From positions 1 through 36,275 of the forward strand of contig JAJRWI010000080.1 in assembly GCA_024276825.1 (NCBI GenBank): DNA of 36,275 nucleotides. Direction: 5' to 3'. This document shows, piece by piece, positions 8,312-32,838 of this stretch (within the stretch, counting starts at the first letter, position 1; every line of letters begins with the position of its first letter). A program made the translations under genes and the position numbers. A model generated the notes under the pieces. That model was given only the letters and a program-made list of their open reading frames with translations, did not search any database and was not told where the DNA came from. The stretch comes from an archaeon. Lineage in GTDB: Archaea; Asgardarchaeota; Thorarchaeia; Thorarchaeales; Thorarchaeaceae.

Positions 8312-9277
8312 ATGAAAGTAGGTGTTCTCACAAGTGGTGGCGACAGTCCAGGCATGAACGCATGCATCAGGGCCATTGTACGAGTTGGAATCAGTAGAGG
8401 ACAGCACATCTTTGGAATCCATGGTGGGCTTCAGGGTCTTCTAGACCGCCATATCTCAACACTTGAGGCACGCTCTGTGGCCAATATCGTCCATAGAGGA
8501 GGGACTATCCTCACAACCGGAAGGTCTGAGGAATTCAGAACAACTGAAGGTCAGAAAAAAGCCGCCCGCATTTTAAGGGAGGAGATGTTTGATGCCCTGA
8601 TTGCTCTCGGTGGCAATGGCACCATGCAGGCTCTTCACAAACTGCAGCAGTACTGGGATGGTCTGATAATTGGGCTGCCTGGAACAATTGACAATGATGT
8701 ATATGGCACCGATTACTCAATCGGCTTTGACACTGCAGTGAACAATGCCATCGATGCTGTAGATAAAATAAGAGACACTGCACAGTCTTTCGATCGCATT
8801 TTCCTGATTGAGGTCATGGGTAGACACTCGGGACAGATAGCATTACATGTTGGAATCGCCTGTGGTGCTGATGTGATTGCCATTCCCGAAACCAAGACCG
8901 ATTTGGATCTTATCGCTGAAAAAATCATAGCGGGAAAAAAGCGGGGCAAGTCATTTGCATTTATCGTTGTTGCTGAAGGAGATGAGGAAGGCGATGCTCA
9001 CACAATCGCGCAGAAGTTGTCAACCAAGATAGGCGAGAAATGCAGGGTGTCGGTATTGGGATATATCCAAAGAGGAGGAAATCCAACGCATCATGATAGA
9101 ATTCTGGCCACACGTCTTGGAGCTTATGCCATCGAATGCTTGCTAAAAGGAGTTAGCGGCGTAATGCTGGGAATGATTAATGGTGAGTTGACTGCAACAC
9201 CATTAGAAGAAACATTCACAAAGAAGAAGCCTATTGATCAATGGCTGTTCAGTCTTGTTGATGAGCTATCCATTTAA
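8312..9277 (+). CDS. pfkA: ATP-dependent 6-phosphofructokinase (PfkA family)
   Basis: VLTSGGDSPGMNA, GGNGT, LPGTIDND, EVMGR, LGYIQRGG. Confidence 0.93.
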   Translation: MKVGVLTSGGDSPGMNACIRAIVRVGISRGQHIFGIHGGLQGLLDRHISTLEARSVANIVHRGGTILTTGRSEEFRTTEGQKKAARILREEMFDALIALGGNGTMQALHKLQQYWDGLIIGLPGTIDNDVYGTDYSIGFDTAVNNAIDAVDKIRDTAQSFDRIFLIEVMGRHSGQIALHVGIACGADVIAIPETKTDLDLIAEKIIAGKKRGKSFAFIVVAEGDEEGDAHTIAQKLSTKIGEKCRVSVLGYIQRGGNPTHHDRILATRLGAYAIECLLKGVSGVMLGMINGELTATPLEETFTKKKPIDQWLFSLVDELSI

Positions 9278-9446
9278 CAACTGTAGAGTTATTGTAGGAA
9301 TAACTTGGATTTAGATATAAGTAAGGCATCAAAGGTTGTTCCACAAGGCGGATATCATAACATCTCGAAGGGCAATTAATTAATAGAAGCTGAAAATAAA
9401 GGATAATAGATTAAAATATGGATACCACTCCCTTTTTGCTTTTTCC

Positions 9447-9736
9447 ATGACTCTGATCGTGGAAATCGGATCTACTATTACATATGCTTTATTGAATAGA
9501 GGGGTCGACAATGGCAATGGTACTTTGAAAAGCATAACACTCCTACTCAAGATACATGGTTTGAGCTATACTGAGCATGGACCGATTATTATCACCTCAA
9601 ACTCAGACTTTGTTACTCAAGGATGGGCAGGATCAAGGACTAAGGCAGATCCATACATCATTGGGAGCTAAACATTATAGCAGATGGTGATTGCATATCT
9701 ATCTCAAATACTGATGTGTACTTTGTGATTCGCAAT
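9447..9736 (+). pseudogene. Frameshifted, truncated remnant of a NosD/parallel beta-helix surface protein N-terminus
   Basis: YTEHGPIIITSNSDFVTQGWAGSRTKADPYII continues after a frameshift near 9665 as LNIIADGDCISISNTDVYFVIRN, then degenerates. It resembles the lead-in of archaeal beta-helix surface proteins (recognised by eye). Confidence 0.7.
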
Positions 9737-9931
9737 AAGCGAAAATTCAGGGTGAGTTCATCGGGCCATAAGTTATATTCTTCAGAAACAGATATTCTCA
9801 AACTAAATATATTCATCATAGAATGTTAATTTCATGTTTATTTTCACCATTTACACACATTTCATTTGATAATGGAATGAATATGTGAACTTATTATCAC
9901 ACATGTGATGTAATTTATGACCACTTATTAC

Positions 9932-9999
9932 GAAAACACATTCACCAAGAAGAAATTGATGAGTGGATGTTCAAACTGGTTGATGAACTGTCAGTTTAA
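9932..9999 (+). pseudogene. Decayed duplicate of the pfkA 3' end
   Basis: ENTFTKK-(4-nt deletion)-IDEWMFKLVDELSV* versus PfkA EETFTKKKPIDQWLFSLVDELSI* (9206-9277); hand count 55/68 nt identical. Confidence 0.85.
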
Positions 10000-10084
10000 T
10001 AGCAGAATGATATCTAGATGAGGCCTTTATTGCAGATTATGACAATGCTTATATTGCAACAGGTTACCGAGTTACTAGAACACA

Positions 10085-10366
10085 ATGTCAACAGTAAAAT
10101 TTGATTTTCAAGACGAATTGGAAGAACTCCAGGTCAGAATATTTATGGACACCCGAAAGAAACTCTCAAAAAAGGAGTTGCTTGAATTAATATTTCAAAT
10201 TGGAATTGAAAATTATGACAAGATAGTAAAAAGAGTGTTATCAAGCAAAAGGCCCCTTGATAATAAGACAATCAAGAAGGTACTGTCAATGGCAGAGGAT
10301 CTTGGTCCCGGCAGTGAAGACCTCTCGCTAAGGGTTGATGATATTGTTTATGGAACTGATGAGTAA
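10085..10366 (+). CDS. Putative antitoxin (VapB-like)
   Basis: 93 aa, overlaps the PIN gene by 1 nt (TAATG); C-terminal DLS.RVDDIVYG resembles archaeal antitoxin tails. Confidence 0.65.
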   Translation: MSTVKFDFQDELEELQVRIFMDTRKKLSKKELLELIFQIGIENYDKIVKRVLSSKRPLDNKTIKKVLSMAEDLGPGSEDLSLRVDDIVYGTDE

Positions 10367-10785
10367 TGTCAGTATTAATTGATAGTAATGTCCTAATTGC
10401 ATTGATCAATAAACGAGATAGACTGCATTCTAAAGCTAAAGAATTGCTTGACAAAATTGCAAAATTGGAAAGCGCCTATCTTATCACAATTGATTATGTG
10501 TTAGATGAAGTCCTAACAACACTATGGAAGCACACTAAGAACAAGAGTGTTGTGAAAAAGGCTTACAATCTGATATGCAACAACCCAGATTTTATCACTT
10601 TGGAATTCATTTCAGAACTGATGATTAGTAACGCATGGGACATATGGTCGAAATACGCAGAGTGGCCAAATAAACCACTTAGTTTTACTGATTGTTGTAT
10701 CGTTTCATTCATAAAGAAAAATAGAATCAAGAATATTGCAACATTTGATTCAGATTTTAATGGACTTGTAAACATAATTAAATAG
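10366..10785 (+). CDS. vapC: PIN-domain ribonuclease toxin (VapC)
   Basis: VLIDSNVL, D..H, VLDEV, LSFTDC, TFDSDF acidic catalytic residues. Confidence 0.9.
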   Translation: MSVLIDSNVLIALINKRDRLHSKAKELLDKIAKLESAYLITIDYVLDEVLTTLWKHTKNKSVVKKAYNLICNNPDFITLEFISELMISNAWDIWSKYAEWPNKPLSFTDCCIVSFIKKNRIKNIATFDSDFNGLVNIIK

Positions 10786-10900
10786 AATTCTTGTTGGCTC
10801 AAATCAATTATTCTAGACTCATACCACAACATAGCCAAAAGTAGGGAATTAAATATCTGATAGAAGATTAATTAATGAGATAACTAAAGGAGCTTGATGT

Positions 10901-11353
10901 ATGAGGCACACCGTTCAGATGCGGCTATCAGACTTTGACGATGAGATGAATCCAATTGAGCGCTGTGATTCAACGGCGATTCCCACAGGCAAGATTTGGA
11001 AGAAGACCATAACAGAAGGCGAGTGGGTGGTCTGCAAGTTCGATGACACTGTTTTTTTCGCACAGATCATCAATGGCAGGATTCACGTGTACGGTCATGA
11101 GGCAGTCTGCAAATGGTGTGGAGACCCCTTGGCCATTCGTGATAAGAGTGTGTTCTGCAGTGGTCATTGTGGGAGGTATCAGGGTAAGGTCTCACGAGAC
11201 CTCAACAAGTATTTACACTGGGATGGCGCAACCTCATTCACTCTTCGCCATGAGATTGCACGGATCGAGGGGCTGGTCCTAGAACCGCGTGATCTCGAGC
11301 CATTGGTTTCCACGCCCCCCATTCCGTTCTATGAAGAGTTTGAAGAGGATTAA
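10901..11353 (+). CDS. Hypothetical protein with CxxC...FCSxxC zinc finger
   Basis: AGGAG RBS; CKWCG-x9-VFCSGHC; acidic C-terminal tail. Confidence 0.65.
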   Translation: MRHTVQMRLSDFDDEMNPIERCDSTAIPTGKIWKKTITEGEWVVCKFDDTVFFAQIINGRIHVYGHEAVCKWCGDPLAIRDKSVFCSGHCGRYQGKVSRDLNKYLHWDGATSFTLRHEIARIEGLVLEPRDLEPLVSTPPIPFYEEFEED

Positions 11354-11367
11354 TTGGACTCGGTGAC

Positions 11368-12246
11368 TCATAGATTCAGTTCAAACAGCAAGAATCTCCT
11401 GTCTTTGTAATCTTCAGGGATTTCTATAAACATCTGAATCCATGTGTGAGCATTATTGCCAAGAAAGAATACAAGGCTCTCGGCAGACTCGTTCTCAGCC
11501 TCTTCGAATATTCTGGAGATTATGTCTACGAACAGGCTCTGATTATCAGCAAAGACAGAGAACACCATCGTCTTCTTGTCATTACGTTGTAACACGCCAT
11601 CAATATAGATCCCGGCAATACTACCATCATGGTCTATAATTGCTCGAAATCTGGCAGACTCTGAGAGTCGTTCTAATGACCTGAGGTCCTTTCCAAAGAA
11701 GGCCCACATGAAGGGAATGGTTTCATGATCCACAAGACCCGGGTTCTCCTGAAGAATAGAATGAAGTCGCTCAGCATCAATGATAAGGGGAACATAATTG
11801 GGACTTGATTTTGGTCTTGGCGGGAATGGATGTTCAATCCTAAAATAACCAACACTGTTCTTCTGTTGAAAACCCAGCCCAAGAGCCAGTTTCTGTGATG
11901 CAGTGTTTCTGCTGCTGGTTCCATAACGAAGTGTCTTGACTCCGACATCCTTGGCAATATCAATGATTTTCTGAACAATCTCTGTGCCATGATGCTGCTT
12001 CTGTGAGTCAGCTCTAACTCTAAGTGCTCTCACCCAGGCCTCATTTGAATTTTTGATCTGTTCTAGCCCACCAAAGCCCACAAGCTTGCCATCAACAAAC
12101 TTTCCAACAAGATGCCAAAGAGGATTACTTATCCAGCTTAAAAAAGTGCTTGGAACATAATCATCTTCCCAGACACTCTTGCTTACTTGGATGACATCTT
12201 CGAGGTCATCTGATGTCAATAGTCGAATTTCCTGATTGTTGGACAT
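11368..12246 (-). CDS. GNAT family N-acetyltransferase
   Basis: IRLLT..D, WVRALRV...Q..HHGT acetyl-CoA motif, N.AS..L...LGF. Confidence 0.82.
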   Translation of the reverse strand: MSNNQEIRLLTSDDLEDVIQVSKSVWEDDYVPSTFLSWISNPLWHLVGKFVDGKLVGFGGLEQIKNSNEAWVRALRVRADSQKQHHGTEIVQKIIDIAKDVGVKTLRYGTSSRNTASQKLALGLGFQQKNSVGYFRIEHPFPPRPKSSPNYVPLIIDAERLHSILQENPGLVDHETIPFMWAFFGKDLRSLERLSESARFRAIIDHDGSIAGIYIDGVLQRNDKKTMVFSVFADNQSLFVDIISRIFEEAENESAESLVFFLGNNAHTWIQMFIEIPEDYKDRRFLLFELNL

Positions 12247-12320
12247 GGATTTTTTCTTGGACTATATCATTTAAGAATCGAATGAAATGTGCCATTTTCG
12301 AGGAGCTTGTTCTGGCTGGG

Positions 12321-13007
12321 TCAATGTGGTGCATATGAAGAACGACCCTTGAAAGCAAGACCCAGTTTGACGCGCTTGCCAGTCGCCATATATACTGCTC
12401 TCTCAGCAATTGCGAACGCATGATCTGCCGCGCGTTCAAAGTATCTACCCACGATGATATAAAAAAGTGCCATCTGACTAATGTCTGTGCGCTTGCGGAG
12501 ATAATCAACAATCTCGTTGAACATCTCACTAGTTTCACGATCACTATCAGCCTCAAGCTTTTCCAATTGATTCAGTTGCGAGAGGTCACCTGTGAGAATT
12601 GCCTTCATACTAATCTCAAGAGTCTTTTTCGCAAGTTGGGCCAGATATGGTAATGATTCGAGCTCTTTGAAATGTTCAAGGCCGTTGCAGAGGTCTACTA
12701 TATGTGCTATCTTATAGGCATATCTTCCCACCCTGTACAGATGGTGAGAGACCTGTAAATAAGTGGCAAGAGTTCTCAGGTCTTTAGCAACGGGCTGCCT
12801 GCGTGCAATTGTCTCAATCACATTCTGTTCAACCTTCTCAGCAAGTTCATCAATATCCTCGCATTTTCGTTTCACCATAGAGGCCTCTTCATCATTCAAA
12901 TGCTTGAATGCAGTCATTGCATCCAATAATGATGACACAGCGAGTTCATAGAGCCTTTCAAGTCGTTTTGCAATCTCTTCAATGTAAATTTCAAGTTGAG
13001 TCTTCAT
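12321..13007 (-). CDS. phoU: Phosphate signalling protein PhoU
   Basis: QPVAKDLR, ERAADHA; last gene of the pst operon. Confidence 0.92.
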   Translation of the reverse strand: MKTQLEIYIEEIAKRLERLYELAVSSLLDAMTAFKHLNDEEASMVKRKCEDIDELAEKVEQNVIETIARRQPVAKDLRTLATYLQVSHHLYRVGRYAYKIAHIVDLCNGLEHFKELESLPYLAQLAKKTLEISMKAILTGDLSQLNQLEKLEADSDRETSEMFNEIVDYLRKRTDISQMALFYIIVGRYFERAADHAFAIAERAVYMATGKRVKLGLAFKGRSSYAPH

Positions 13008-13019
13008 TTATACATCTCC

Positions 13020-13787
13020 TCATCCTATTCGTCCAGTGATAAAGGCCTCCGTTCGGGGATCTTCAGGAGCTTCCGCAATCCTTTTGGTCTTATCGAATTC
13101 CACGAGTTCGCCAAGATAGAGAAAGGCTGCTTGGTCTGAAACTCGAAAGGCCTGTTGCACATTATGCGTAACGAGGATAATAGTATAGTCTTTCTTTAAT
13201 TGCATTATTAAATCTTCAATTTTCGCGGCACTGATTGGGTCTAATGCAGAAACGGGTTCATCCATCAACAGGATAGGAGGGTCAATGGACAATGCTCTTG
13301 CAATGCATAATCTCTGTTGTTGACCGCCTGAAAGATTCAAAGCAGGTTGGTCAAGATTGTCCTTCACTTCATCCCAGAGTGCTGCCCTTCTTAAGGTATG
13401 TTCCACAATTCTCTCAAGCTCATCTGAATCATGAAGACCATGTAGACGTGGGCCGTATGTGATATTATCACGAATACTCATCGGAAACGGATTTGGCCTT
13501 TGAAACACCATTCCTACCCTGCGTCGCAATTCATACACATCGGCATCAGGAGCATAGATGTTTTCGCCCTGAAGCATGATCTTCCCAGTCATCCTAAAAC
13601 TATCAACCAAGTCATTGAGTCGATTGATTGATCTAAGAAGAGTGCTCTTTCCACAACCACTAGGGCCCATTATTGCCGTCACTGAGCTATCCTCAAAATA
13701 ACATGTGATGTTCTTTAGAATCTGCTTCTCTCCAAACCATGTGCAGAGGTTTTCGATTTCAATGTGGTATTCATAGTCAGATTTCAT
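13020..13787 (-). CDS. pstB: Phosphate ABC transporter ATPase
   Basis: GPSGCGKS, VGMVFQRPNPFPMSI, LSGGQQQRLCIARAL, TEAFITGRIG. Confidence 0.96.
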   Translation of the reverse strand: MKSDYEYHIEIENLCTWFGEKQILKNITCYFEDSSVTAIMGPSGCGKSTLLRSINRLNDLVDSFRMTGKIMLQGENIYAPDADVYELRRRVGMVFQRPNPFPMSIRDNITYGPRLHGLHDSDELERIVEHTLRRAALWDEVKDNLDQPALNLSGGQQQRLCIARALSIDPPILLMDEPVSALDPISAAKIEDLIMQLKKDYTIILVTHNVQQAFRVSDQAAFLYLGELVEFDKTKRIAEAPEDPRTEAFITGRIG

Positions 13788-13788
13788 T

Positions 13789-14727
13789 TCAGACGACCCT
13801 CCGTGTGACCTTGCGTGACACTATTTGTGCAGTGGCATCGATCATTAGCACCATTATTAGAAGGGTTAATGCGGTCCCTTGTGATTTCACTTGAAGATAA
13901 GATCGTGGGTCTGATATGTAGGCCCAAATTGTATATGGCATTGATGCAACCCATGATCCCGGTCCCATCAAGTCAGTTGGCAGTCCCAAATTGTTTCCGG
14001 TGGTGAATATCAGGGGTGCAGTTTCTCCCATAATCCGTCCTAGTGAAAGAAGGATTCCTGTGATGATTCCCGGGAATGCAGCGCGTATGGTGATATTCCA
14101 TGTTGTTGACCATTTTGTTGCTCCCAGTGCAAGTGAAGCTTCTCTGAGCTCTCTTGGCACTTGCTTTAATGCCTCTTGAGTTGTTCTTAATGTGCTTGGA
14201 ATCATCATAAATGCCAGTGTGAGACCGCCAGCAACCATTCCAAGACCAATACGTAGGTAGACAACTAGGAAGACAAATCCGAATGCTCCAAATACAATGG
14301 AAGGGATTCCAGCAAGAACATCAGATGCAAATTCTATCGCACTTCTCATCAGGCCTGGCCGTGAGTATTCAGTAATATAGACAGCTCCAAATATGCTGAG
14401 CGGGATTCCAACAGCACCAGCAATCAAGATAAGAAGTAGTGTTCCCACAATCGCATTCAGAATACCTCCTGTCAGGTCACCACCGGGTGTTGTAAAGATA
14501 AACTCTAGGCCATTCCCATGGCCTGAGCTGAGAAAGATCTGAAGCCCCATAATGCCAATCTGAAAGACAATCATGAAGAAGGGTAGGATCACTATGATTA
14601 TTGCTGCAATAAGCAGAATTTTCGTCAGAAGGTCTTTGAACTTTCTCAGCTTATTTGCACTCTTGAATTTGCTCGCTTTCTTTCCCCTAGTGGCTCTAGG
14701 AGTTGGGTTTCCACTATTATTATTCAT
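13789..14727 (-). CDS. pstA: Phosphate ABC transporter permease
   Basis: LAGIPSIVFG, REASLALGATKW, GETAPL. Confidence 0.94.
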   Translation of the reverse strand: MNNNSGNPTPRATRGKKASKFKSANKLRKFKDLLTKILLIAAIIIVILPFFMIVFQIGIMGLQIFLSSGHGNGLEFIFTTPGGDLTGGILNAIVGTLLLILIAGAVGIPLSIFGAVYITEYSRPGLMRSAIEFASDVLAGIPSIVFGAFGFVFLVVYLRIGLGMVAGGLTLAFMMIPSTLRTTQEALKQVPRELREASLALGATKWSTTWNITIRAAFPGIITGILLSLGRIMGETAPLIFTTGNNLGLPTDLMGPGSWVASMPYTIWAYISDPRSYLQVKSQGTALTLLIMVLMIDATAQIVSRKVTRRVV

Positions 14728-15729: not shown

Positions 15730-15762
15730 TGTTCTCTATCCCTTGAATTCCTACTAAAGTGT

Positions 15763-15787
15763 AATGTGAATATGATTTGTTCACATT
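15763..15787. promoter_or_regulatory. Inverted repeat AATGTGAA-N9-TTCACATT between pstS and pstC
   Basis: Perfect 8-bp arms seen directly; function (operator or mRNA hairpin) inferred. Confidence 0.35.
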
Positions 15788-15830
15788 TCCATGATTACAG
15801 GTCCTCGCTCGATGTTATGCATAATGATCA

Positions 15831-17113: not shown

Positions 17114-17123
17114 ATTTTGACAT

Positions 17124-18249: not shown

Positions 18250-18774
18250 TCAACGGGTCTTGAACTTTTCTTGAATCGATTTCACCAGTTCCAAGAAAGC
18301 AAGATCGACATTTTCGTTTTCAGTAGCACTCGTTCGAATAAGTTTGAGCCCCCTTACTTCTGCCAATCCTGCAAGCTGATCATCAGTTATCACTGGAGAC
18401 AGGTCAATTTTATTCGCAACCATAATAACAGGCACCTTTCCTGCTCCGCTATAGAGCGCATTTAGCCATCTGTCAATATTGGCCAAGGTTTCGGGTCGTG
18501 TAATATCAACTACCAGAAATGCACCTGCAGCGTTTGAACAGTATTGCTCTCTCAATGCTGAAAAGGACTCTTGCCCACCAAGGTCCCAAATTACAAGCTT
18601 TATTCTTGAGCCATCCACAATAACAGTCTTCACATGGAGGATTGCCCCAATTGTACGGCCTGTGTACATTGAGAGACTATTATACACATACCTTTCGACC
18701 AGCGATGTCTTGCCTACCCCGCTATCTCCAAGAAAGACGAGTTTATGGACATAATCAGGGGTATCTGTTGACAC
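18250..18774 (-). CDS. Rab-like small GTPase
   Basis: G1 GDSGVGKT, G2 TIG, G3 WDLGGQ, G4 NKID, G5 TSA; no C-terminal Cys. Confidence 0.92.
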   Translation of the reverse strand: MSTDTPDYVHKLVFLGDSGVGKTSLVERYVYNSLSMYTGRTIGAILHVKTVIVDGSRIKLVIWDLGGQESFSALREQYCSNAAGAFLVVDITRPETLANIDRWLNALYSGAGKVPVIMVANKIDLSPVITDDQLAGLAEVRGLKLIRTSATENENVDLAFLELVKSIQEKFKTR

Positions 18775-18826
18775 GGATTTCTCTCTCCAAATCTCTGGTT
18801 ACATTAATAGTAAATAAGTCAACCGA

Positions 18827-19363
18827 CTAAGCTGTGGGCATTTCCTTTTCTCTTGCTTTATCAAGTATTCTCTTTGTAAGCCGCATGAATGCCTGTTCAA
18901 CATTTGTGTCTTCCTTGGCACTTGTCTGAACATAATCAAAGGCGTATTTATTTACAATTCCGTTTATCAGGTCTTTACTTGTCTTACTCTTGAGATCGCA
19001 CTTGTTTTCAACCAGAACTACTGGTATTGTAGAAGTTACGCTATATAGGGTGGAAATCCAATCATCTATTCTATCAAGAGTTTCAGGTCGTGTTCTATCA
19101 AACACAAAAAATGCTCCAGCAGCGTTTTGATAATATGCCTTTCTTAATTGTGCAAAACTGTCCTGACCTGCAATATCCCAGATTACCAGTTTGACAAGTA
19201 CATCATCAATATGGATTTTTTTCACATGGATGTCAGTACCAATAGTTGCTAAATAATCGCCTTCAAAACTATCATAGACATAACGGCCCACCAAGCTAGT
19301 CTTGCCTACTGCGCCTTCACCTAGAAAGACGAGTTTGAATAGGTAATCTGCTTTGTCTGGCAG
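18827..19363 (-). CDS. Rab-like small GTPase (probable CTG start, 178 aa)
   Basis: The frame extends upstream of the tracked ORF: (M)PDKADYLFKLVFLGEGAVGKT; YLATIG, WDIAGQ, NKCD, TSAK; GGAGAG 8 nt before the CTG. Confidence 0.88.
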   Translation of the reverse strand: MPDKADYLFKLVFLGEGAVGKTSLVGRYVYDSFEGDYLATIGTDIHVKKIHIDDVLVKLVIWDIAGQDSFAQLRKAYYQNAAGAFFVFDRTRPETLDRIDDWISTLYSVTSTIPVVLVENKCDLKSKTSKDLINGIVNKYAFDYVQTSAKEDTNVEQAFMRLTKRILDKAREKEMPTA

Positions 19364-24456: not shown

Positions 24457-24464
24457 TTTAACGC

Positions 24465-24492: not shown

Positions 24493-24632
24493 GCATTATT
24501 CTTCGCTGTCAAGTATTTCTGTGTGCTGAGAGTGTCGAAATGCAAAGAGGTGAATTTCAATCATTAAATGCCATTGCCTTAACACTAGTCATCGAGCCGA
24601 GTTTAGTAAAGCTCACTGACTGATTGCAATAT

Positions 24633-26612
24633 TTAGATCATAATTAGCGATTGAATCAAAAACTCCAATAATCTGTATACTATTCCCCCAACAATTATTG
24701 CAGTTATTAGATTCGCTAATGCGATTGCAATAGTAGGTCGCCACCCAAATTCTTTGATTAATATTGCGAGGGTTGATATACATGGGATATATAGCATTCC
24801 AATAAGTGCAAGCACGATGAATTGAACAGGCGTTAGAACTAGCGCAAGGTTTGTTCCATAGATGGCAACCAATAAAAGAAGAATGTACTCCTTTCTAATG
24901 ACGCCGAAAATCAATAATATTCCAGCGATTGCAGGTAATCCAAGCCACCAAACAGTAAGCGGAGCTAGAAAGTTGCTTATTGGGTCAAGGAACCCAAATG
25001 CATACATTCCCTGAACCAACGCGCTTCCAAGTATATACAACGGAAAGACCATGTAGATAATTGATTTTGTCCGTGTCCAAGTCTGCTTTGTTACTACAGA
25101 GAAGGAAGGAACTCTAAGAGTATGAATTTCCATTATCAGACCAGTCGTTTCTCCAGACAATGCTTTGAATGCCATTCGACCCACTATGAACATAATAAAG
25201 ATATCAATAAGATAGAGTGCCAATGCCCATTCAATGCTAACAAATGCGGCAACAAGACCAAGAATAATAATGGTTCTCGCAGAACATGGGGCGAAAGTAA
25301 TTGCGAGTGCTGCAAGCATTCTCTCACGTCGGGTTTCCAGTATTCTGGTTGTGTAAATGGCAGGAACATTGCAGCCGTAACCAAGTATCAATGGAACCAG
25401 CGCTTTACCATGTAGCCCAATCTTGTGCATGAAGCTGTCCATCATAAATGCCACTCTTGGTAGAATTCCAGAATCTTCAATCACTGTGAGCATAAGATAA
25501 AAAGGAATTATATAAGGCACAACCAGTGTGATTCCAGCAACAATGCCACCGAAGGCACCGTTCCATAATATGCTGATAACTGGTCCACTTACAACTGGAT
25601 CCACGGGTTGAAAGAATCCAAATAGCTGAGAGAGGATATCAGATAAGAAATTTCCAACTAAGAATGTCCACAACAGCAATGTGGCAATGACCATAAATGA
25701 AACAACATAGCCAAAAACCCGATGAGTCACAATGCGGTCGAGCTTTTCTGATAATGTTGCTTCTATTTCGGTGTTTATCTGGGAGTCGTTTGCAATCCTG
25801 CTTGCGCATGAGTATCTCTCAGAGTTAATGATTGAAAAGCAAGGTTCTTGATGGATGTCCTCTAATTCAATGGCAAGTTGGTTGGCTAGGATGATTATTT
25901 CCTTAGATTCTGATTCCATCTGCTCACGTACTTCTTCATCATCTTCCAACAGCTTAATTGCAATCCATCTTAGAGGATACCCCAATTGAAGTTTGATGGA
26001 CTTGAGGAACTTGACAAGTTTCTCAATCCTCTCTTCCACTTCTGCCCCATATCGAATTAGTGGTTTCTTTTCTTGTGGGGCATTTTTGGCCACCCCTACA
26101 GCTACTTCCATTAAATCATGAAGACCCTCGCCACGAATAGCCACAGTGGGAATGACTGGCACTCCAAGAGCAGCTTGTAGCTTATCAATATCTATAATGA
26201 GCCCCTTTTTCAAAGCAATGTCCATCTGATTGACACAAATGACAAGTGGGACTTCCAGCTCCATCAATTGAAGAGTAAAGTACAGATTGCGTTCTAATAC
26301 TGATGCATCAATGACATTAATTACGACATTTGGCTCTTCAAAGGCAATATACTCTCTAGAAACTACTTCCTCAAGAGAGAATGTTGAGAACGAGTATATT
26401 CCAGGTAGATCAATAACTTCAATATCATAGTTCTCAAAACGAAGATATCCCTTTGCAAGCTCAACTGTCTTTCCCGGCCAATTTCCTATGATCTGACGAG
26501 AGCCTGTGAGATGATTGAAAATCACACTCTTGCCAACATTGGCATTTCCAGCAAGAGCAATAACCAGTTGTTTGTCTGCCGCTTCCATTGATGTCTTGTC
26601 TTCAGAAGGCAT
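24633..26612 (-). CDS. feoB: Ferrous iron transporter FeoB
   Basis: [38 protein letters not shown]; start placed at the ATG at 26612 to avoid overlap with the upstream gene. Confidence 0.95.
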
Positions 26613-26643
26613 AGAGCAATGACCTGTAAGTCTCACTATATGA

Positions 26644-27381
26644 TTACACTCCCAGAACTTCAACAAAGACACTCGAACCAACAGTCCGGCCAAGAGCGAT
26701 ATTTGATCCTCTGACCGCAATCTCCACCGGACCTCTGAACGGTGCTTTTCTCAAAACGACAATTGTAGCACCTACTGTAATGCCTAAGTCCAAGAGTCTT
26801 CTGATCATTTTGTGACCACCTCGGATAAAGGCAATTCTGGCCTTTTGTCCCTCTTTTAAAGCAGGGTCGGCCAATGATATTACATCTTGGTCGCGCTTGC
26901 CTATTTCTCCAAGATCGCGTCTTTTTTTCTTCATACACTCATCACAGCTTGATAATTTCAAATCACATGCAGGGATTGGATTACGAGTGTCTGGACACTT
27001 ATCCGGATGCTTAAGCAATTGGCATAGCGCTCGCTCGGACTCGTCATTTAAGGTGTGTTCTATTTCGCATGCCTGATCATGAACACGATCCTTCTTGATT
27101 TTCAGAATGTAATGCAAGAAACATTCGAGCAATCTGTGTCTGCGAACCATCTTTTTGGCGATTCTACGTCCTTCAACTGTTAGATTCACGCCCTTATACG
27201 GGTAGTAATTGACATAGCCCAACTCACTTAATCGTTGCATCATCTGAGTGACACTTGCAGGGGCGATGTTCATTTTTTTAGCAATCTCTGAATTCTTCAC
27301 CTTATCAGCATTCTGACTGAGCTTATAGATCACTTCAAGATATTCTTGGATGCTTTCACTCTGTAATTCGTCAGTGGACAT
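26644..27381 (-). CDS. DtxR/MntR family metal-dependent repressor with C-terminal FeoA domain
   Basis: EYLEVIY, PASVTQM, RRHRLLE.FL, ACEIEH, P..CP; FeoA RRLLDLG...APFRGPV...IALGR. Confidence 0.92.
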
Positions 27382-27397
27382 TTTAGCTTCGCCTAAA
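27382..27397. promoter_or_regulatory. DtxR-type operator immediately upstream of the repressor ATG
   Basis: Minus strand TTTAGGCGAAGCTAAA (TTTAG-N6-CTAAA), similar to the DtxR-family TTAGG...CCTAA box. Confidence 0.6.
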
Positions 27398-27582
27398 TTT
27401 TACTTAAAAGATTGTAATGTATAGTTGCCTATGAAGTTATCTATCATTGCAGAATGAATTTGTTTCTTATTTGATGCGATTGACTCATCCAAAAATGCCT
27501 TCAATTGATTTGAGTTTGACTCATTTTATAATTCTATATATAAGTCCTAATTCTAGCCCATATAGAAGAGGTGATCTATCTG

Positions 27583-28032
27583 ATGTTTCTTGATAAGAAA
27601 GTAAGTCATTTTTTTGATGCGCTCCATGTGGGAGTTGTTATTCTGAATCCAAATGATCAAATTATTCTTTTTAACAAAATGGCTGGGAAAATGCTCGGAC
27701 AGGACCCATCAAGTCGGATTAACAGTTCAATTCTTCGATGCCATCCGAAGCGTGCAGAGCCAGGTGTTCAAAAGATGCTCGATGAATTAAAATCTGGTGA
27801 ATTAAAAAAATATCAGGGCTGGGTCAATTTCCAGGGTCGCATTCTATGGGAGCACATCTATCCTGTGAGAGATGAGAAAGGAAACTACCTTGCTACAATG
27901 ATTGAACTTCATGATGGCACAGCAAAGGCCAGATTGCTTGAGTTGGAGGGAAAATTCGAAAAACCTGAAATGCATGGCGTTGGGGCTAGTTCTCCAAGAA
28001 GCCCTTTCCCGGATTCGGAAACTGACGAATGA
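27583..28032 (+). CDS. Stand-alone PAS domain protein
   Basis: GVVILN...IILFN..A, SILRCHP, PVRDEKGNYL; GAGGTGA RBS before the ATG at 27583. Confidence 0.8.
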   Translation: MFLDKKVSHFFDALHVGVVILNPNDQIILFNKMAGKMLGQDPSSRINSSILRCHPKRAEPGVQKMLDELKSGELKKYQGWVNFQGRILWEHIYPVRDEKGNYLATMIELHDGTAKARLLELEGKFEKPEMHGVGASSPRSPFPDSETDE

Positions 28033-28057
28033 TGTCAATTGAACATATTGCAGCCAA

Positions 28058-28969
28058 CTAAATTCCCAATACTACCAATATGACACCAACAATAGTAATT
28101 ACAATTCCAAAACATGCCAGTTTCGTCAACTCCTCCTTTAGAAAGATTACAGATATGGGAACTGCGAAGATTGGAGCAGATGATGCAATGACTGAGGTAA
28201 TAGCTGCTCCTGCATATTTTACTGATGCGACATATAACAAAGAGCCTAATCCCATGCCAAAAAACGCAGCCATGGCCACAATCTTCATTGATTTTCTAGA
28301 GGGCAAGGCCATGCCGTTTCGTAATGCTATTGATACTATTGGAAGAAAAGCAGCGGACCCGAATAGCAGACGGATAAAGTTGCCGCTAAACACATCAATA
28401 TTATACATACCAACTTGTAATATGGTTGTAGCAATGGCATACAATATCGCTGTGAGAAATGCCATCCCAACTCCTATTAGATTGGTTCTTTTATTTCTAA
28501 ATTTGTCCGACAAATCTTCAGATTTACTTTGCTCACTTGAAATTACTGTTATTCCAAGTATTGCGAGAATTGTTCCAATCAATCTTGAAACAATAAAGGG
28601 CTCTTGCAGAAACCATATCGTAAATGCAAAAGTGAATATTGGAAAAGACATTGCTATTGGAAATGCATAGGACACACCAATTCTCTCTTGGCTCATAAGA
28701 TATATTGTGTCTCCAACCACAGCACCAAGAATGACCGAAGCTGCTAAAAGAACTACTGTTTCAAGGGGAATCATTGTAATTGCTGTTTGACCAAACAATA
28801 TCGCGGCAAAAGCAATTATAGGTAATGCTATCCACATTTTTAGAGAACTGATCAAAAGAGGTCGAATCTCTTCTCTTTGGGATCTATAAATAACAACTGA
28901 AATAGCATAAAAGACCACTCCAATCAGACCCATTATTGAGCCAAAGAGAACATCCGGTATGGGTTGCAT
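28058..28969 (-). CDS. DMT/EamA family transporter
   Basis: 10 TM segments in two repeats; IGVS.A.PI, FLQE and FLKE motifs. Confidence 0.9.
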   Translation of the reverse strand: MQPIPDVLFGSIMGLIGVVFYAISVVIYRSQREEIRPLLISSLKMWIALPIIAFAAILFGQTAITMIPLETVVLLAASVILGAVVGDTIYLMSQERIGVSYAFPIAMSFPIFTFAFTIWFLQEPFIVSRLIGTILAILGITVISSEQSKSEDLSDKFRNKRTNLIGVGMAFLTAILYAIATTILQVGMYNIDVFSGNFIRLLFGSAAFLPIVSIALRNGMALPSRKSMKIVAMAAFFGMGLGSLLYVASVKYAGAAITSVIASSAPIFAVPISVIFLKEELTKLACFGIVITIVGVILVVLGI

Positions 28970-28990
28970 AAATGTAAGCTAAATTGCAAA

Positions 28991-29217
28991 GCAAAAACAC
29001 TATTGGTCAATGCCAGATTTTTCAATCTCACATGCCTCATCGATCAATTTAACAGCTGTTCTAAATACCTAATGAGATGCTGCAACCATTGGAATTTATT
29101 TCTCACATCTTGGTTTCTTGTAGTATCCTTTTGTTAGGATTTCTGCCATCATGATCATAATTTCAAGTGCATCATAGGCTTTCGCATATGTGTATGGATT
29201 AGTGAATCTTGCCAGCT
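28991..29217 (-). pseudogene. Decayed duplicate of the mtd 3' region
   Basis: FTNPYTYAKAYDALEI...TKGYYK...EK*IPMVAASH*VFRTAVKLIDEACEIEK versus Mtd FTNPYAYAKAYAALEI...; gapless 29020-29209 versus 32061-32250, hand count 132/190 nt; two in-frame stops. Confidence 0.92.
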
Positions 29218-29258
29218 ATTAAGCTGCATTCCGATTGCCATTCAAATCTAGTTCAGCC

Positions 29259-31766
29259 CTAAGGCAGATAGCTTGATTGATACCATATTAAGCCCTCAGG
29301 GGGACCTGATGTTATCACGAAATAGTAGATTCCTATTTCAGGCCCTATCAGCTGTACGGTTTGGCTATCTGCCGTTAGAAAGAATTCATGAATTATTGTC
29401 AGATTATAACTCAAGATTAGTCCTGTAAACTCTGCACCTGTTGGAATCTCTGCATAGAAGTCATAATTGTAGCTTGAATTCAAGAAAGAATAGCCAGCAA
29501 GAATGCCTCCATAAATGTCCCATGGTGTAGGGCACATTAGATATGGATAGCTATCCCTAATGGGATTCATTGCATTCGGGGGTGTTTCATTCGCTGGAGT
29601 CACTGTCATGGTAATATTGAATGCAGTGTCATTCAAATTCTGCTTGATGACGATCAACTTTGTCAAAGAAGCAGAACCTGCGTCAGGGTCGAGGATGTAT
29701 CCAGGCCAAGCATTATTAAGAATCTCAACGAATTGAGTGTCATTTGTGCCATCTGACCAATATCGAATTATTGTTATATTAAGATGTTTATTATTGCCTC
29801 CACTCCAATTAAGAAACATTGAGAATGAGGTGCTATTGTTGATGTTAATTACTTCAAAAGCAGACTCTTCAGGTTGTAATTCGACAGTGTCGTTAAGAGC
29901 TTGACCCTCATATGTCATGCTCAAAGTCTTGTTATAATCGGGAGTGATGGTCATTGTGATACGTTGGGTATATCGTGTTGTAACACCTTTAATGACCCAG
30001 ATTCTTGAGATCCGCTTAGGTGCGTTTGGATTGAGATGGATAATGCCAGTTTTGCTCGTTGAATTCATATGAATAATGATGGTTTCATTAGTCCCATCTT
30101 CATAAAATACCAAAACTGATGCCACCCATTTGTCACTAGAGTAGGACCAATTAAGCCGCAGGGTGAATGGAGATTCTCCAGTGATATTCACCTCTTCAAT
30201 CACGGCACCACCCTTGCCCCTTACCCATACTGTGTCATTCAGAGCACCATCAGTGTAATTCATTCGAACATGTGGCTCATACAATGGCACACCATTTGCC
30301 TTATGCGCATCAAGAATTAGCCAGCTCCAAAATCGAATCAAGGCTTGTTCAAGAGTCATGTTCAATACTCTTTGAAGCGCGGTTTCAGGCGACACGTTTC
30401 TGGAATCGCCACTGCCATAATATTTAGTTTCATTGAATATTCTTAGAAGGGTATTGGGACCAAATGTTTCATTCAGCCATTTTGTGAACAAGAATGAAGC
30501 CATGTAATCATTCCATGTGCCCACCCATCTTTCGAATGGACTACTTGCATTCAAGTCTCTATAATGATCAAACCAGTTAAGACTCCCAAGGCGCTTTGCC
30601 ATTCGCATCCATGATGTCATAGTCATATTGGGATAGTTCCTTAACATTGATGTCATGCCCCAGAATTCAGCCTGCCCTTCAACAAACCATCTGGAGTAAA
30701 ACCACACATGGCGAAATGTTCCAGTTGAGTCATTATATCTCTTAAAATGGAATTGATGCATCATTTCATGTTCGCCTACGAGCTTGAGCTCTTCCCTTGT
30801 GGCATTAGTTCCCACTCGAAATATAATGGTACCATTAGGATTAGCCGAGGCAGTAGACTCTACTGATGTTGATGATACTAGACGTACTCGGATCCTTCCC
30901 TGACTGTCTTTATTTGGTTCGCCAAAACCTAACTGTCTATAGAGATTAACTGAGAAGTTGATGTGTTCAGAGATGAGATTAATAACAGAGCGGTTGACTC
31001 CTGGCCCAGCTCTAACTGTGATATTATCACCCTGCATAAGGGATTCATCGAATCCAGTGGTCTGAATATCAGTTCTTACTCCATTGATGAACCAAATCTC
31101 ATCTCCACCATATTGTCCTGATGTGTAAGATATGAGAGCATTTGGTTCTCCAGGTGTCATTGGGCCTGTTACCCAAGAATCAGACAAATCATCACTCGGA
31201 AAGTATGAGAGAGACTCATCAGAGGCAGGAGGGTTCGGACCATCCATTGCATCATTCCAATCACCAAGGATAGGATCTCCATTGCCACCGCCATACCTCA
31301 TGAAATCAACCAAAAGTCCACTTGCGTCGTGAATACCAACTTCATCACCCGACGGGTCCAAAATACTCGAGTTAAGACCTGCATAGACAGTAGCCTGATT
31401 ATCGTTGATATCCAAGTCATTTGTCCCAACACCCGTAAATACTCGCAAATAGAGATACTTGCTATTTCCAGTGAGAGTTGGCAGAGTGATGATATCATCA
31501 TCATATGTCGTTAGAATCCAGTTAGTCATGTCTGGAAGCTGTCCAGTTGTAAAGAGTTCAATGAATTCATCTTGCGTGGATTCATCAGGATGAACCTCAT
31601 TTATGATAACTAGACTCTTATCTTGGGATGGGTCATCTACAAGCTCAGTTTCATCTGGTGGAGTCTGTGGACCACGATATAATATGAAAACACTAACACC
31701 AGCCAAGAGGATAATTATAACTAGTGCAACAGCGGCGCGTTTCATTAGTATGAACCTCGCAGACAA
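29259..31766 (-). CDS. Membrane-anchored/secreted protein: lamin-tail-like domain + gluzincin metallopeptidase + tandem beta-rich domains
   Basis: N-terminal TM; VIINEV...EFIEL...W.L (LTD); HEMMH plus downstream WFVEGQAE; many N-x-S/T sequons; start may be the ATG at 31745. Confidence 0.72.
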   Translation of the reverse strand: MSARFILMKRAAVALVIIILLAGVSVFILYRGPQTPPDETELVDDPSQDKSLVIINEVHPDESTQDEFIELFTTGQLPDMTNWILTTYDDDIITLPTLTGNSKYLYLRVFTGVGTNDLDINDNQATVYAGLNSSILDPSGDEVGIHDASGLLVDFMRYGGGNGDPILGDWNDAMDGPNPPASDESLSYFPSDDLSDSWVTGPMTPGEPNALISYTSGQYGGDEIWFINGVRTDIQTTGFDESLMQGDNITVRAGPGVNRSVINLISEHINFSVNLYRQLGFGEPNKDSQGRIRVRLVSSTSVESTASANPNGTIIFRVGTNATREELKLVGEHEMMHQFHFKRYNDSTGTFRHVWFYSRWFVEGQAEFWGMTSMLRNYPNMTMTSWMRMAKRLGSLNWFDHYRDLNASSPFERWVGTWNDYMASFLFTKWLNETFGPNTLLRIFNETKYYGSGDSRNVSPETALQRVLNMTLEQALIRFWSWLILDAHKANGVPLYEPHVRMNYTDGALNDTVWVRGKGGAVIEEVNITGESPFTLRLNWSYSSDKWVASVLVFYEDGTNETIIIHMNSTSKTGIIHLNPNAPKRISRIWVIKGVTTRYTQRITMTITPDYNKTLSMTYEGQALNDTVELQPEESAFEVININNSTSFSMFLNWSGGNNKHLNITIIRYWSDGTNDTQFVEILNNAWPGYILDPDAGSASLTKLIVIKQNLNDTAFNITMTVTPANETPPNAMNPIRDSYPYLMCPTPWDIYGGILAGYSFLNSSYNYDFYAEIPTGAEFTGLILSYNLTIIHEFFLTADSQTVQLIGPEIGIYYFVITSGPPEGLIWYQSSYLP

Positions 31767-31906
31767 ATAGAAGTTAATAAGAGTTAATGCATATGCTAAT
31801 AAGCCTTGCGTCGATATTGTATTCCAAAATGAGCTATTTAATCCCTTCTTGAATAATCATGTTTCAGATTAGACTATATCAATGGAACTTGCGTGGGCAT
31901 TGAACT

Positions 31907-31955
31907 GAAGCAGGCTGAAATACCATCATGATCATGGAATTCCAATGCCTGCTTC
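31907..31955. other. Stem-loop downstream of mtd
   Basis: GAAGCAGGC...GCCTGCTTC 9-bp arms with inner CCAT/ATGG pairing, about 20 nt after the mtd stop. Confidence 0.4.
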
Positions 31956-31974
31956 GAGAGATTATTGGTTTATT

Positions 31975-32838
31975 CTATTTTGGCTTGTCAAATAGTTTAG
32001 TCTTGGATAGTCTCTTGCCTGATGAACCGTGAGGAGTGCGAAGAACACTATCGCCGGCTTTCTCAATCTCCCGTGCCTCATCAGCAAGTTTAGATGCTGC
32101 TCTTAGCACCTCGTGGGCAGCGGTTACCATTGGAATGTATTTCTCTGGCCTTTGCTCCTTGAAACATCCCTTTGTTGTTATGCCAGCCACTACGGGCAAT
32201 ATCTCAAGTGCGGCATATGCCTTTGCATATGCATAAGGATTAGTGAATCCACCAGCTTCAAGTGCCTTAGCAGTCTTTAAGGTGATTTTTGGAAGCTCTA
32301 GTTCTTTTCCATCTTTTAGAGAATCAATGAGTTTATCCATTTCTATCTGAATAAAGCGGATAACACCAGTTGTAGAGAGAACCTTGATCAGTTCTGCGTT
32401 AAAGAGAGCCATCTCGGAAGGATCTAGGAACTCTTTTCGCGCGCCTATCATAGGATCCATGGGCAACACAATGAACCCGCTGTTGTCAGGAACAGAAACA
32501 ACACTCTTCCCCTCTTCATTCTTCTTGTAAAATGCTTTCTTAGAAGGTGCGTCTGATATTGATACTATGGGGATATTCTTGCCTAGCAGAATCTCTCGTG
32601 CCCTAGTTGGCCCAGGCAGTGCCGCATTTGGACTCACAATAAACACAAGCTGCGGCTTCATCTCTGCCATTCTATTTGCAGAATATTCACAGGCATCAGG
32701 TTCAAGCTTCGCACCAGATCCCGCAGATACCACCGCGATATCCTTTCTCTCTGCACGTTCATCCATTATGAGATCAAGAAGCGGTGCAGCTCCAATACAA
32801 CCAAGTTTTAAAACACCTATCCTTACAAGGTCGGTCAA
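31975..32838 (-). CDS. mtd: F420-dependent methylene-H4MPT dehydrogenase
   Basis: KLGCIG...DERAER.DI...GSGAK, SPNAALPGP, DPMIGARKEFLDP.EMALFN, NPYAYAKA, RTPH; GGAGG RBS. Confidence 0.95.
   Translation of the reverse strand: MTDLVRIGVLKLGCIGAAPLLDLIMDERAERKDIAVVSAGSGAKLEPDACEYSANRMAEMKPQLVFIVSPNAALPGPTRAREILLGKNIPIVSISDAPSKKAFYKKNEEGKSVVSVPDNSGFIVLPMDPMIGARKEFLDPSEMALFNAELIKVLSTTGVIRFIQIEMDKLIDSLKDGKELELPKITLKTAKALEAGGFTNPYAYAKAYAALEILPVVAGITTKGCFKEQRPEKYIPMVTAAHEVLRAASKLADEAREIEKAGDSVLRTPHGSSGKRLSKTKLFDKPK

Follow-up and report, generated by a model that had tools for sequence, protein, structure and literature searches.

Displaced gene tails behind accessory genes in Thorarchaeia as possible scars of recombination-driven gene capture

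How did two unrelated housekeeping genes on one archaeal contig each come to be followed by cargo and then by a broken copy of their own 3' end? The 36,275-nt stretch of it that we call the window belongs to a metagenome-assembled genome of the Thorarchaeia (G000; 2.9 Mb, 82 contigs). No known prokaryotes are more closely related to eukaryotes than the Asgard archaea, and gene exchange among these bears on how the eukaryotic ancestor assembled its gene set. An earlier, sequence-only reading of the window had proposed that the layout records the capture of cell-surface genes by one-sided homologous recombination, anchored in conserved genes. We found that the layout is real at both sites, with a copy of the pfk tail at the first and a fragment of mtd at the second (Table 1).

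Table 1. Features of the two sites in the window.
Site	Feature	Position	Strand	Basis or remark
pfk	Intact pfk (ATP-phosphofructokinase, 321 aa), left anchor	8312..9277	+	Pfam PFK, E 2e-103
pfk	Left repeat: pfk tail including stop codon	9202..9277	+	Local DNA alignment to 9927-9999, 77%
pfk	Dead cargo: frameshifted N-terminal piece of ~130 aa, beta-helix surface-protein family	9447..9814	+	blastx against own paralogues
pfk	Displaced pfk tail (remnant), ~25 codons plus stop, 4-nt deletion	9927..9999	+	77% identity over 77 aligned nt
pfk	VapB-like gene and PIN/VapC gene, a pair	10085-10366 and 10366-10785	+	PIN E 1e-13; far side of remnant, same low-GC island
pfk	p150 (150-aa gene), conserved right neighbour of pfk, right hotspot border	10901..11353	+	Family-wide comparison
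mtd	EamA-family transporter gene	28058..28969	-	Pfam EamA, E 4e-36
mtd	Displaced mtd fragment (remnant), codons ~191-264, in-frame stops	29012..29230	-	E 8e-20
mtd	Cargo: 835-aa membrane-anchored protein, lamin-tail domain, HExxH motif	29259..31766	-	Co-oriented with mtd
mtd	Left repeat inside intact mtd, codons ~191-262	32053..32268	-	DNA alignment to 29230-29012, 71% over 220 columns
mtd	Intact mtd (F420-dependent methylene-H4MPT dehydrogenase, 287 aa), anchor	31975..32838	-	Pfam MTD, E 1e-106

At the first site, the remnant is 73 nt long, lies 650 nt behind pfk and terminates exactly on TAA. Its Smith-Waterman score was 62, against a genome-wide null with a 99th percentile of 38. The cargo in front of it is 60% identical, in two frames, to the N-terminal motif of a paralogue at C26:2031-4508, and full-length paralogues in this beta-helix family measure 420-1200 aa. 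The remnant sits in a 1.6-kb low-GC island (9278-10900; 34% GC versus 43.6% for the genome), and the VapBC pair in the same island is absent between pfk and p150 in relatives. The site may have grown by accretion, its order along the DNA being beta-helix piece, remnant and VapBC.

At the second site, the remnant is 219 nt long, with an identity to mtd of 62-65% at the amino acid level and 66-71% at the nucleotide level; as protein it matches residues ~194-264 of mtd. Of its in-frame stops, the 65-codon core has two and the full match three, and the EamA gene starts 42 nt behind it. The membrane anchor of the cargo protein is N-terminal, and its lamin-tail domain was recognized with an E of 7e-9. 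The cargo gene has homologues of 50-58% identity in four other genera, where it never adjoins mtd, and has none in its own genus. Compared with mtd genes, the remnant came closest to that of G000 itself (62%); for 19 others the identity was 35-48%. Being uniformly further from all alleles outside G000, it does not tell the native tail of this pair from the incoming one. The earlier reading saw co-oriented, extracellular-type cargo at both sites; that of mtd is membrane-anchored and co-oriented, and that of pfk is a co-oriented, dead fragment of a surface-protein gene.

We compared the last 35 amino acids of 2454 G000 genes with gene-masked DNA within 10 kb in four placements, namely downstream on the same strand and three controls, with a score cut-off of ≥55. 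The downstream, same-strand placement gave six matches, of which four were solid, one was weak and one was false (an acidic tail common to the ribosomal proteins P0 and P1), versus 0, 2 and 2 matches in the controls, all four of them shared domains in real genes. The mtd case was found separately and became the fifth solid one; the scan had missed it because the remnant lacks the last ~25 codons. For the whole of G000 this makes five solid C-terminal remnants that lie downstream of their gene and are co-oriented with it, besides a weak case and a mirror case, with no genuine case in the controls. Matches set aside from scanning were YHS/TRASH and zinc-ribbon domains, tandem small GTPases at 18250-19357 (false or weak), C81:13-1383 and C33:64397-64819 (chance level) and C54:1-2022 (weak, with no cargo).

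A closed genome of the same genus (G001; a single 3.16-Mb contig) was scanned over its first 1.6 Mb, about half of its length. There were eight matches at the same cut-off, four of them solid, against 0, 0 and 1 in the controls, and one mirror case consisting of a 5' remnant upstream of its gene. The density of scars was equal to that in G000. G000 and half of G001 thus contain nine solid co-oriented downstream C-terminal remnants versus 0-1 in the three control placements, and 3' remnants outnumbered 5' remnants by 9:2. The recurrence predicted from two cases was borne out genome-wide and in further Asgard genomes, through G001 and through a pfk remnant in another genus (G021). The same scan over 0.84 Mb of other archaeal contigs found 0 cases where ~1-1.6 were expected, a set too small to tell whether this lineage is special.

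Could the layout be an artefact, either of strain-variant mis-assembly or of chance similarity between short peptides? G000 is metagenome-assembled, in 82 contigs, and the pfk match is short, with 17 aa in one frame. However, copies that are 61-89% identical are too different for assembler confusion, the same layout occurs in the single-contig G001, the scores fall far outside the null distribution, and the true matches were confined to one of the four placements. We find an artefact barely credible.

The way in which the two copies differ is informative about their origin. Identity within repeat pairs ranges from 89% down to 61%, and nucleotide differences summed by codon position were 37, 23 and 78 for first, second and third positions (chi-square p 2e-8). 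Reading frames are still open in several remnants, including C45 and cases A and B of G001. The two youngest pairs, C45 and C31, switch sharply from identical to diverged: in C45 the first 15 codons (45 nt) are identical and are followed by 6 synonymous and 3 non-synonymous changes, and in C31 the first 20 codons have one synonymous change (a block of ~62 nt with 1 mismatch), after which 22 of 28 codons differ. The pfk and mtd pairs of the window are too diverged to show an identical core. Judged from these alignments, the third-position bias and the sharp breakpoints fit recombination with a diverged allele; because the youngest pairs switch so sharply, their copies appear to be two alleles joined by a crossover and not a decayed duplicate. 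We rejected an origin by tandem duplication, given that no second copy of the cargo follows the remnant and that the repeats differ as alleles do.

A related possibility is a local long target duplication, made by staggered breaks or copy-and-switch repair and decaying thereafter, for which no donor allele would be needed. The (nearly) identical 5' blocks of C45 and C31 are what a true duplication would leave, the mtd remnant is closest to the genome's own allele, and repeats of 46-420 bp, some overlapping gene 3' ends, surround recombinase-free inserts in bacteria (Furuta et al. 2010, PMC2853133). Uniform decay, however, cannot turn 0-1 differences into ~35% divergence within one repeat, nor can it yield a third-position excess with open frames (C45, G001 A and B), and the published repeats hardly differ from one another or from the empty target (PMC2853133). 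We therefore regard this origin as quite improbable.

The restriction-modification units with such duplications (Nobusato et al. 2000; Furuta et al. 2010, PMC2853133) are nevertheless like the islets in being small recombinase-free inserts between direct repeats that are far longer than transposon target duplications and in some cases overlap gene 3' ends. They differ in carrying restriction-modification cargo between near-identical repeats, whereas the islet repeats are 61-89% identical and allele-like. No archaeal case passed the 2010 screen (PMC2853133); the islets have the insert size (<20 kb), the repeat length (>30 bp) and the freedom from other mobile elements that it used, but not its near-identical repeats, theirs being synonymous-biased in their differences.

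In our judgement the islets are probably scars of recombination-driven gene capture that had no recombinase of its own, although we hold this view with considerable reserve. DNA from a diverged relative, in which accessory genes come after a conserved gene's tail, would pair with the resident gene. A first crossover within the last 20-90 codons would leave the working gene ending in the incoming tail. The other end would then be joined out of register, and the resident tail would be left behind the cargo, where it would decay. The second join may be illegitimate, as in homology-facilitated illegitimate recombination (HFIR), may be the single crossover of a circularised fragment, or may be made by an integrase acting in trans. 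The allele-like divergence and the breakpoint in the anchor gene fit the one-sided homologous recombination of the earlier reading. We infer the donor, the route of DNA entry, the use of host RadA-type machinery and the nature of the second join.

The layout resembles what ordinary recombination with DNA of diverged relatives, a process known from bacteria, would leave as a scar. HFIR has been described in a series of studies (de Vries & Wackernagel 2002; Prudhomme et al. 2002; Meier & Wackernagel 2003, via PMC5361080), and its proposed footprints are the displaced effector/immunity modules of the Vibrio cholerae T6SS and the strings of orphaned 3' regions at Rhs/CDI loci. HFIR resembles the islets in several respects: homology is provided by a conserved gene upstream, which acts as the anchor, no integrase takes part, cargo enters behind the anchor while the old downstream part is displaced and kept as an orphan, and repeated events give arrays, to which the interleaved pairs in G001 may be compared. 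A diverged-allele tract adjoining the cargo, with the breakpoint inside the anchor gene, was found in C45 and C31, and the far joint varies in position, with remnants of 17 to ~77 codons. These footprints differ in being bacterial, mostly from transformable species, and at polymorphic-toxin loci whose payload is the variable tail itself, whereas the islets have housekeeping anchors, cargo unrelated to the anchor, and Asgard hosts.

Two observations sit uneasily with plain recombination. One-sided recombination on one chromosome copy cannot duplicate an identical 5' block; this needs a second chromosome copy, copy-and-switch repair or a circular intermediate. Nor is the 9:2 excess of 3' over 5' remnants predicted unless selection is invoked. 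By analogy with e14 at icd, an identical 5' block followed by a diverged tail also exactly resembles the attL/attR of an integrase-borne element.

A rival explanation is that the islets are integrase-less or eroded elements, whose site-specific recombinase, of the tyrosine or another type, acted in trans or has since been lost and whose attP would bring the replacement tail. The order of gene, cargo and displaced tail and the preference for 3' ends are classic for integrative elements, and the 45-nt block of C45 and the ~62-nt block of C31, each (nearly) identical and then diverged, are core-like. A documented precedent is e14 (PMC13626634). Like the islets, e14 (and phage 21) at icd shows an insert-supplied tail, the insert, and the native tail as a pseudogene (icdC), with differences between the two tails that are largely synonymous. 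Unlike them, e14 is 15 kb long, has its own integrase and excises on SOS induction (PMC13626634), whereas the islets are 0.65-7.3 kb and contain no recombinase.

As the sequence-only reading had it, neither window site has a tRNA, recombinase or transposase: the window contains no tRNA and no such domain in any sizeable ORF, and tblastn of the window with 13 integrases from relatives returned no match. The 3'-remnant sites and the hotspot inserts sent to Pfam yielded no integrase, intact or as a pseudogene, and the cargo ORFs of co-oriented 3'-remnant islets in G000 and G001 sent to Pfam included no recombinase; the mirror-case islet on C81 of G000 does hold an IS110 transposase. Metagenome-assembled genomes tend to lose mobile elements. 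G000 has one tyrosine recombinase, cut by a contig end (C78:8586-8996), whose orthologue adjoins tRNA-Ser, and PF00589 genes occur in about half of the family's genomes. In the single contig of G001, however, nothing matched PF00589, PF00239, PF01548, PF01609 or PF00665, so that no tyrosine, serine, DEDD or DDE recombinase was detectable there, yet its scar density is the same.

None of 17 pfk loci of relatives has an integrase, and 79 other mtd loci were free of integrase-like sequence and of mtd remnants; ordinary integrase-bearing elements at both sites would have spoken against the earlier reading. Around the relatives' 13 integrase loci (+/-10 kb) there were neither gene-tail remnants nor repeats that span the integrase. 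In cis-mobilizable elements and in tandem accretion, as in the islets, cargo that lacks an integrase lies between att-like direct repeats. Such elements depend on a related element that has an integrase and uses the same att site; none was found at the pfk or mtd loci of 40 relatives or anywhere in G001. Remnant boundaries also vary between independent events at the same gene. For pfk the remnant has ~25 codons in G000 versus 39 in G021, where it lies 1.1 kb downstream, with no common boundary. The host gene of the C31 case, a molybdopterin oxidoreductase, has left an orphan remnant in G022 that starts ~5 codons apart from the one in G000. A trans-acting or lost integrase is a possibility to be kept in mind, but a doubtful one.

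More speculatively, and in our view unlikely, the islets could be 'homology-addressed' mobile cassettes of Asgard archaea, each a unit of conserved-gene tail plus cargo. Such a unit would loop out via its two repeats, pass from genus to genus and be taken up again by the orthologous gene in one crossover catalysed by the host, with the gene tail acting as att site and the host recombination machinery as integrase. If true, this would account for the identical 5' block, for the bias to 3' ends and for the repeated use of the same genes across genera.

The interval between pfk and p150 is a family-wide hotspot for accessory genes. It is empty (42-112 nt) in 5 relatives and filled with 0.6-3.4 kb in at least 9 relatives and in G000 (at least 10 genomes). 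The intact pfk is 62-75% identical to its orthologues in most genomes of the family. The inserts are mutually unrelated, with different accessory genes in nearly every genus, and no recombinase or transposase domain was found among the cargo genes sent to Pfam. Hotspots of transfer free of mobile elements, with core genes on either side that recombine homologously often, have been described (Oliveira et al. 2017, PMC5635113), and these likewise pair one core-gene interval with differing accessory genes and no mobility proteins. The model for them differs in invoking two homologous crossovers that leave no scar, whereas the islet remnants mark an out-of-register second join; those hotspots were also defined within bacterial species, and ours between genera of an archaeal family.

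Hotspot behaviour of this kind does not hold at mtd, where the wide flanks of 9 relatives showed no synteny. A metagenome scan with mtd returned 80 loci, with a best identity of 72%, and none had common synteny, the cargo or an mtd remnant. We infer direction and donor because neither an empty site nor a donor genome was found at species level; amino acid identity reaches 72% for the nearest mtd and 75% for the nearest pfk of the same genus.

Scars of this kind would be a marker, readable from sequence, of capture from diverged relatives that used no mobile-element enzymes. They date the events, because repeat identity runs from 89% down to 61%, and they draw attention to particular hotspots, of which pfk|p150 is one. 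Should their rate turn out to be high relative to other prokaryotes, that would suggest that recombination in this group tolerates unusually diverged partners. For annotation, remnants explain orphan 'gene fragments', and some tails of housekeeping genes would be foreign.

The proposed bias toward surface cargo did not survive the wider survey: other islets carry toxin-antitoxin, transporter, hydrolase and glycosyltransferase genes. Among the genes seen there are an MNT/HepT toxin-antitoxin pair (C32), an M20 peptidase, a glycosyltransferase, a protein with a beta-lactamase fold, a block of ABC transporter genes and oppositely oriented membrane ORFs. Toxin-antitoxin genes in or beside two islets, MNT/HepT as C32 cargo and VapBC beside the pfk remnant, might suggest selfish insertion by a cargo nuclease, either a homing-endonuclease 'mobile ORF' or an addiction module of toxin-antitoxin or restriction type that would cut the target and bring the replacement tail. 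The 'mobile ORF' type occurs in fungal mitochondria. HepT and PIN, however, are RNases, no DNA endonuclease domain was found in the cargo ORFs sent to Pfam, and most cargos are ordinary enzymes, transporters or surface proteins, which makes selfish insertion very unlikely.

A junction motif shared between islets, which the earlier reading had suggested looking for, was sought at five islets and did not appear, and the same five had no terminal inverted repeats. The anchor genes include pfk, mtd, a radical-SAM enzyme and a molybdopterin oxidoreductase, and the cargo is unrelated to them. Inserts measure 0.65-7.3 kb and repeats 73-245 nt. Cargo GC was 31-37.5% in four of five islets, compared with 43.6% for the genome.

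We called open reading frames across the whole source genome, G000 (2.94 Mb in 82 contigs, metagenome-assembled, 98% complete, 43.6% GC), masked genes of at least 120 aa, and compared the last and first 35 residues of 2,454 genes with translated DNA up to 10 kb away on either side, taking each strand separately, which gave four placements (C-terminal cut-off score at least 55). C-terminal matches at or above the cut-off numbered six downstream on the same strand, none downstream on the opposite strand, and 2 and 2 in the upstream placements. The four upstream matches were rejected as remnants on inspection, because they lie in genuine genes that share a YHS/TRASH or zinc-ribbon domain, and so was one downstream match, an acidic tail common to ribosomal P0/P1; the match on contig C54 was weak. 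Four solid islets, in which cargo lies between an intact conserved gene and a displaced, diverged copy of its own tail (the remnant), were thus found by the scan, including pfk in the window. The mtd islet is a fifth; its remnant does not include the extreme tail, so it was tblastn that detected it.

The same procedure applied to the first 1.6 Mb of the same-genus genome G001 (one 3.16-Mb contig) gave 8 downstream same-strand matches versus 0, 0 and 1 in the other placements, with 4 solid cases and one mirror case, a 5' remnant upstream of the intact gene. All 9 solid cases pooled from the two genomes fell in one of the four placements (binomial p about 4e-6), and the layout, claimed from two sites by the sequence-only reading, does recur beyond them. 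An artefact is a less likely explanation. A separate pfk remnant of 39 codons lies 1.1 kb downstream of pfk in G021, which belongs to another genus, and in G022 there is an orphan remnant derived from the tail of the gene that hosts the C31 islet in G000.

Features of the window and of other islets in the source genome
Feature	Location	Strand	Description
Window	entire contig C74		36,275 bp
Intact pfk	8312-9277	+	Pfam PFK, E 2e-103
Dead cargo	9447-9814		~130-aa N-terminal piece of a beta-helix surface-protein family, frameshifted, between the two pfk copies
pfk remnant	9927-9999		copy of last ~25 codons plus stop, 650 nt after pfk
VapB/PIN pair			beyond pfk remnant
p150	10901-11353		150-aa gene, conserved right neighbour of pfk
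mtd remnant	29230-29012		219 nt, matches mtd codons ~191-264
mtd cargo gene		co-oriented	835 aa, after mtd; membrane anchor, lamin-tail domain, HExxH motif
Intact mtd	31975-32838	-
Solid case	C45:4450-4971
Solid case	C31:46-630
Solid case	C32:1692-2822
Mirror case	C81		80-aa 5' remnant 4 kb upstream of zinc alcohol dehydrogenase; IS110 transposase in interval

The layout reported at pfk was borne out, with the qualification that its cargo is a dead gene piece. The remnant is 77% identical to the pfk tail across 77 aligned nt, with a 4-nt deletion, and terminates precisely at TAA; its protein-level score was 62, far above the 99th percentile of 38 obtained when about 2,400 genes were put through identical scoring. 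G000 encodes at least seven full-length members of the cargo's family. At mtd, too, the layout held, with the displaced fragment (E 8e-20; 62-65% aa and 66-71% nt identity) behind a co-oriented gene. This fragment has two in-frame stops within its 65-codon core and three across the full match, lacks the last 25 codons and ends 42 nt ahead of an EamA gene; an mtd remnant was found at 0 of 79 other mtd loci. The G000 mtd is 68-70% identical to that of two other genera (G016, G015) and just 57% to that of G001, in contrast to pfk, which is 75% identical to its G001 counterpart; the entire mtd gene may be a replacement that came from another genus.

Summed over five pairs, the sites at which the two copies differ fell mostly at third codon positions (37/23/78, p 2e-8), and the remnant frame was open through to the original stop in C45 and in G001 cases A and B. 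In the two youngest pairs the change was abrupt. The first 45 nt of the C45 pair are identical and the remainder has 6 synonymous and 3 non-synonymous codon differences, while the C31 pair matches over ~62 nt with one mismatch, after which 22 of 28 codons differ. Long target duplication arising locally (PMC2853133) is less likely, and its uniform decay was rejected, since it cannot yield a sharp identical-to-diverged switch in these pairs together with the third-position excess. Judged by their sequences, the two tails are different alleles that evolved under selection and were joined by crossover to a shared block. The breakpoint pattern alone fits both a host-catalysed crossover and an integrase core, because e14 at icd (PMC13626634) shows the same pattern.

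The main rival, in which an integrase worked in trans or has since disappeared, we consider possible but rather unlikely. As claimed, no recombinase was seen at the sites: integrase-like sequence was absent from the window, 19 pfk loci and 88 mtd loci, and the 36,275-bp window has no tRNA genes. The islets showed neither inverted repeats nor a junction motif in common, and there were no gene-tail repeats within 10 kb of 13 relatives' integrase loci. Family searches of G000 found no match to PF00589 or PF16795, and elsewhere in the genome only a broken IS607-like piece, one IS110, two DDE_Tnp_1 and TnpB pieces. Searching by tblastn with relatives' integrases recovered one tyrosine recombinase outside the window (C78:8586-8996, minus strand; C-terminal ~135 aa, 53% identity, cut by the contig end), which the PF00589 search had missed; the G006 orthologue of this recombinase adjoins tRNA-Ser. 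G000 is therefore not integrase-free. G001 had no match to five recombinase/transposase families, and despite this its scar density equals that of G000.

Gene capture by the host's own recombination is the best-supported account, and we hold it to be probable by a modest measure. On this account, DNA of a diverged relative brings in the tail of a conserved gene together with accessory genes; crossing over within that tail would join it to the resident gene, and the resident tail would be stranded behind the cargo when a second join is made out of register. This second join might be illegitimate, as in homology-facilitated illegitimate recombination, or a circular fragment might have entered through a single crossover. 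In young pairs the identical block is present twice, which would require copy-and-switch repair, a circle or a second copy of the chromosome. Homology-facilitated illegitimate recombination, proposed for displaced T6SS modules and Rhs/CDI orphan arrays (PMC5361080), is alike in the possible illegitimate second join. Nuclease-driven selfish insertion is less likely. The kind of event is already known from bacteria, and we found no description in archaea in the literature searched; new here are the control-matched genome-wide count, the closed-genome replicate, the allele-breakpoint signature and the pfk|p150 hotspot.

Surface-type, co-oriented cargo did not hold up as a rule. Cargo in G000 comprises the dead beta-helix piece, the 835-aa surface protein, a co-oriented MNT/HepT toxin-antitoxin pair, two small opposite-strand membrane ORFs, and a 0.8-kb stretch without a clear gene; that in G001 comprises a beta-lactamase-fold protein, a 7.3-kb block (ABC ATPase, acyltransferase, CAAX protease, regulator), a 766-aa glycosyltransferase and an opposite-strand M20 peptidase. 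G021 has an opposite-strand KaiC-like ATPase. With types and strands so mixed, the rule is not general. Cargo GC was 31-37.5% in 4 of 5 G000 islets versus 43.6% for the genome.

Downstream of pfk, 17 relatives conserve p150 and a convergent GNAT gene. Five genomes, one of them same-genus, have 42-112 nt between pfk and p150, and in nine others the spacer is 0.6-3.4 kb and holds different genes in each (an unknown 774-aa protein, CDGSH iron-sulfur protein, methylase piece, secreted-type nuclease/phosphatase, alpha/beta hydrolase, P-type ATPase); no recombinase was found among the inserts scanned. Such varied inserts between core genes match bacterial mobile-element-free hotspots, which have been put down to homologous recombination in the core genes on either side (PMC5635113). 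As p150 is the conserved neighbour, the G000 island spans 9278-10900 (beta-helix piece, pfk remnant, VapBC), a make-up that suggests two events in succession or a single compound one. In G021, a 915-aa beta-helix gene of the same family as the window fragment (G021:C8, L271:5918-8665, plus strand) directly adjoins the pfk remnant and is convergent with pfk, so that members of this family lie next to pfk in two genera.

Several other loci were observed. The C81 remnant lies in a mobile-element debris cluster (C81:166300-178010, L034) with a broken IS607-like unit (MerR-HTH plus serine-recombinase N-terminus, with a TnpB piece) and an intact IS110-family transposase. Two tandem Ras/Rab-like small GTPase genes in the window (18250-19357, minus strand; 48% identical) gave a false N-terminal match and were rejected as a remnant. 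The G022 orphan (G022:C105:7640-7765, L156) is a 42-aa molybdopterin oxidoreductase tail flanked by a DinB-family gene and a cobalamin adenosyltransferase gene, in an assembly that yielded no intact copy. A small example in a third genus, spotted during the integrase-locus check, is a 143-aa gene (G008:C1, L294:15078-15687) whose tail recurs ~100 nt downstream as a 27-aa copy with 52% identity. Finally, two remnant pairs in G001 (C1:639625-649660, L188, L189) are interleaved, in the order amidohydrolase A, 7.3 kb of cargo including regulator B, A remnant, beta-lactamase-fold gene and B remnant, which looks like successive captures at one place.
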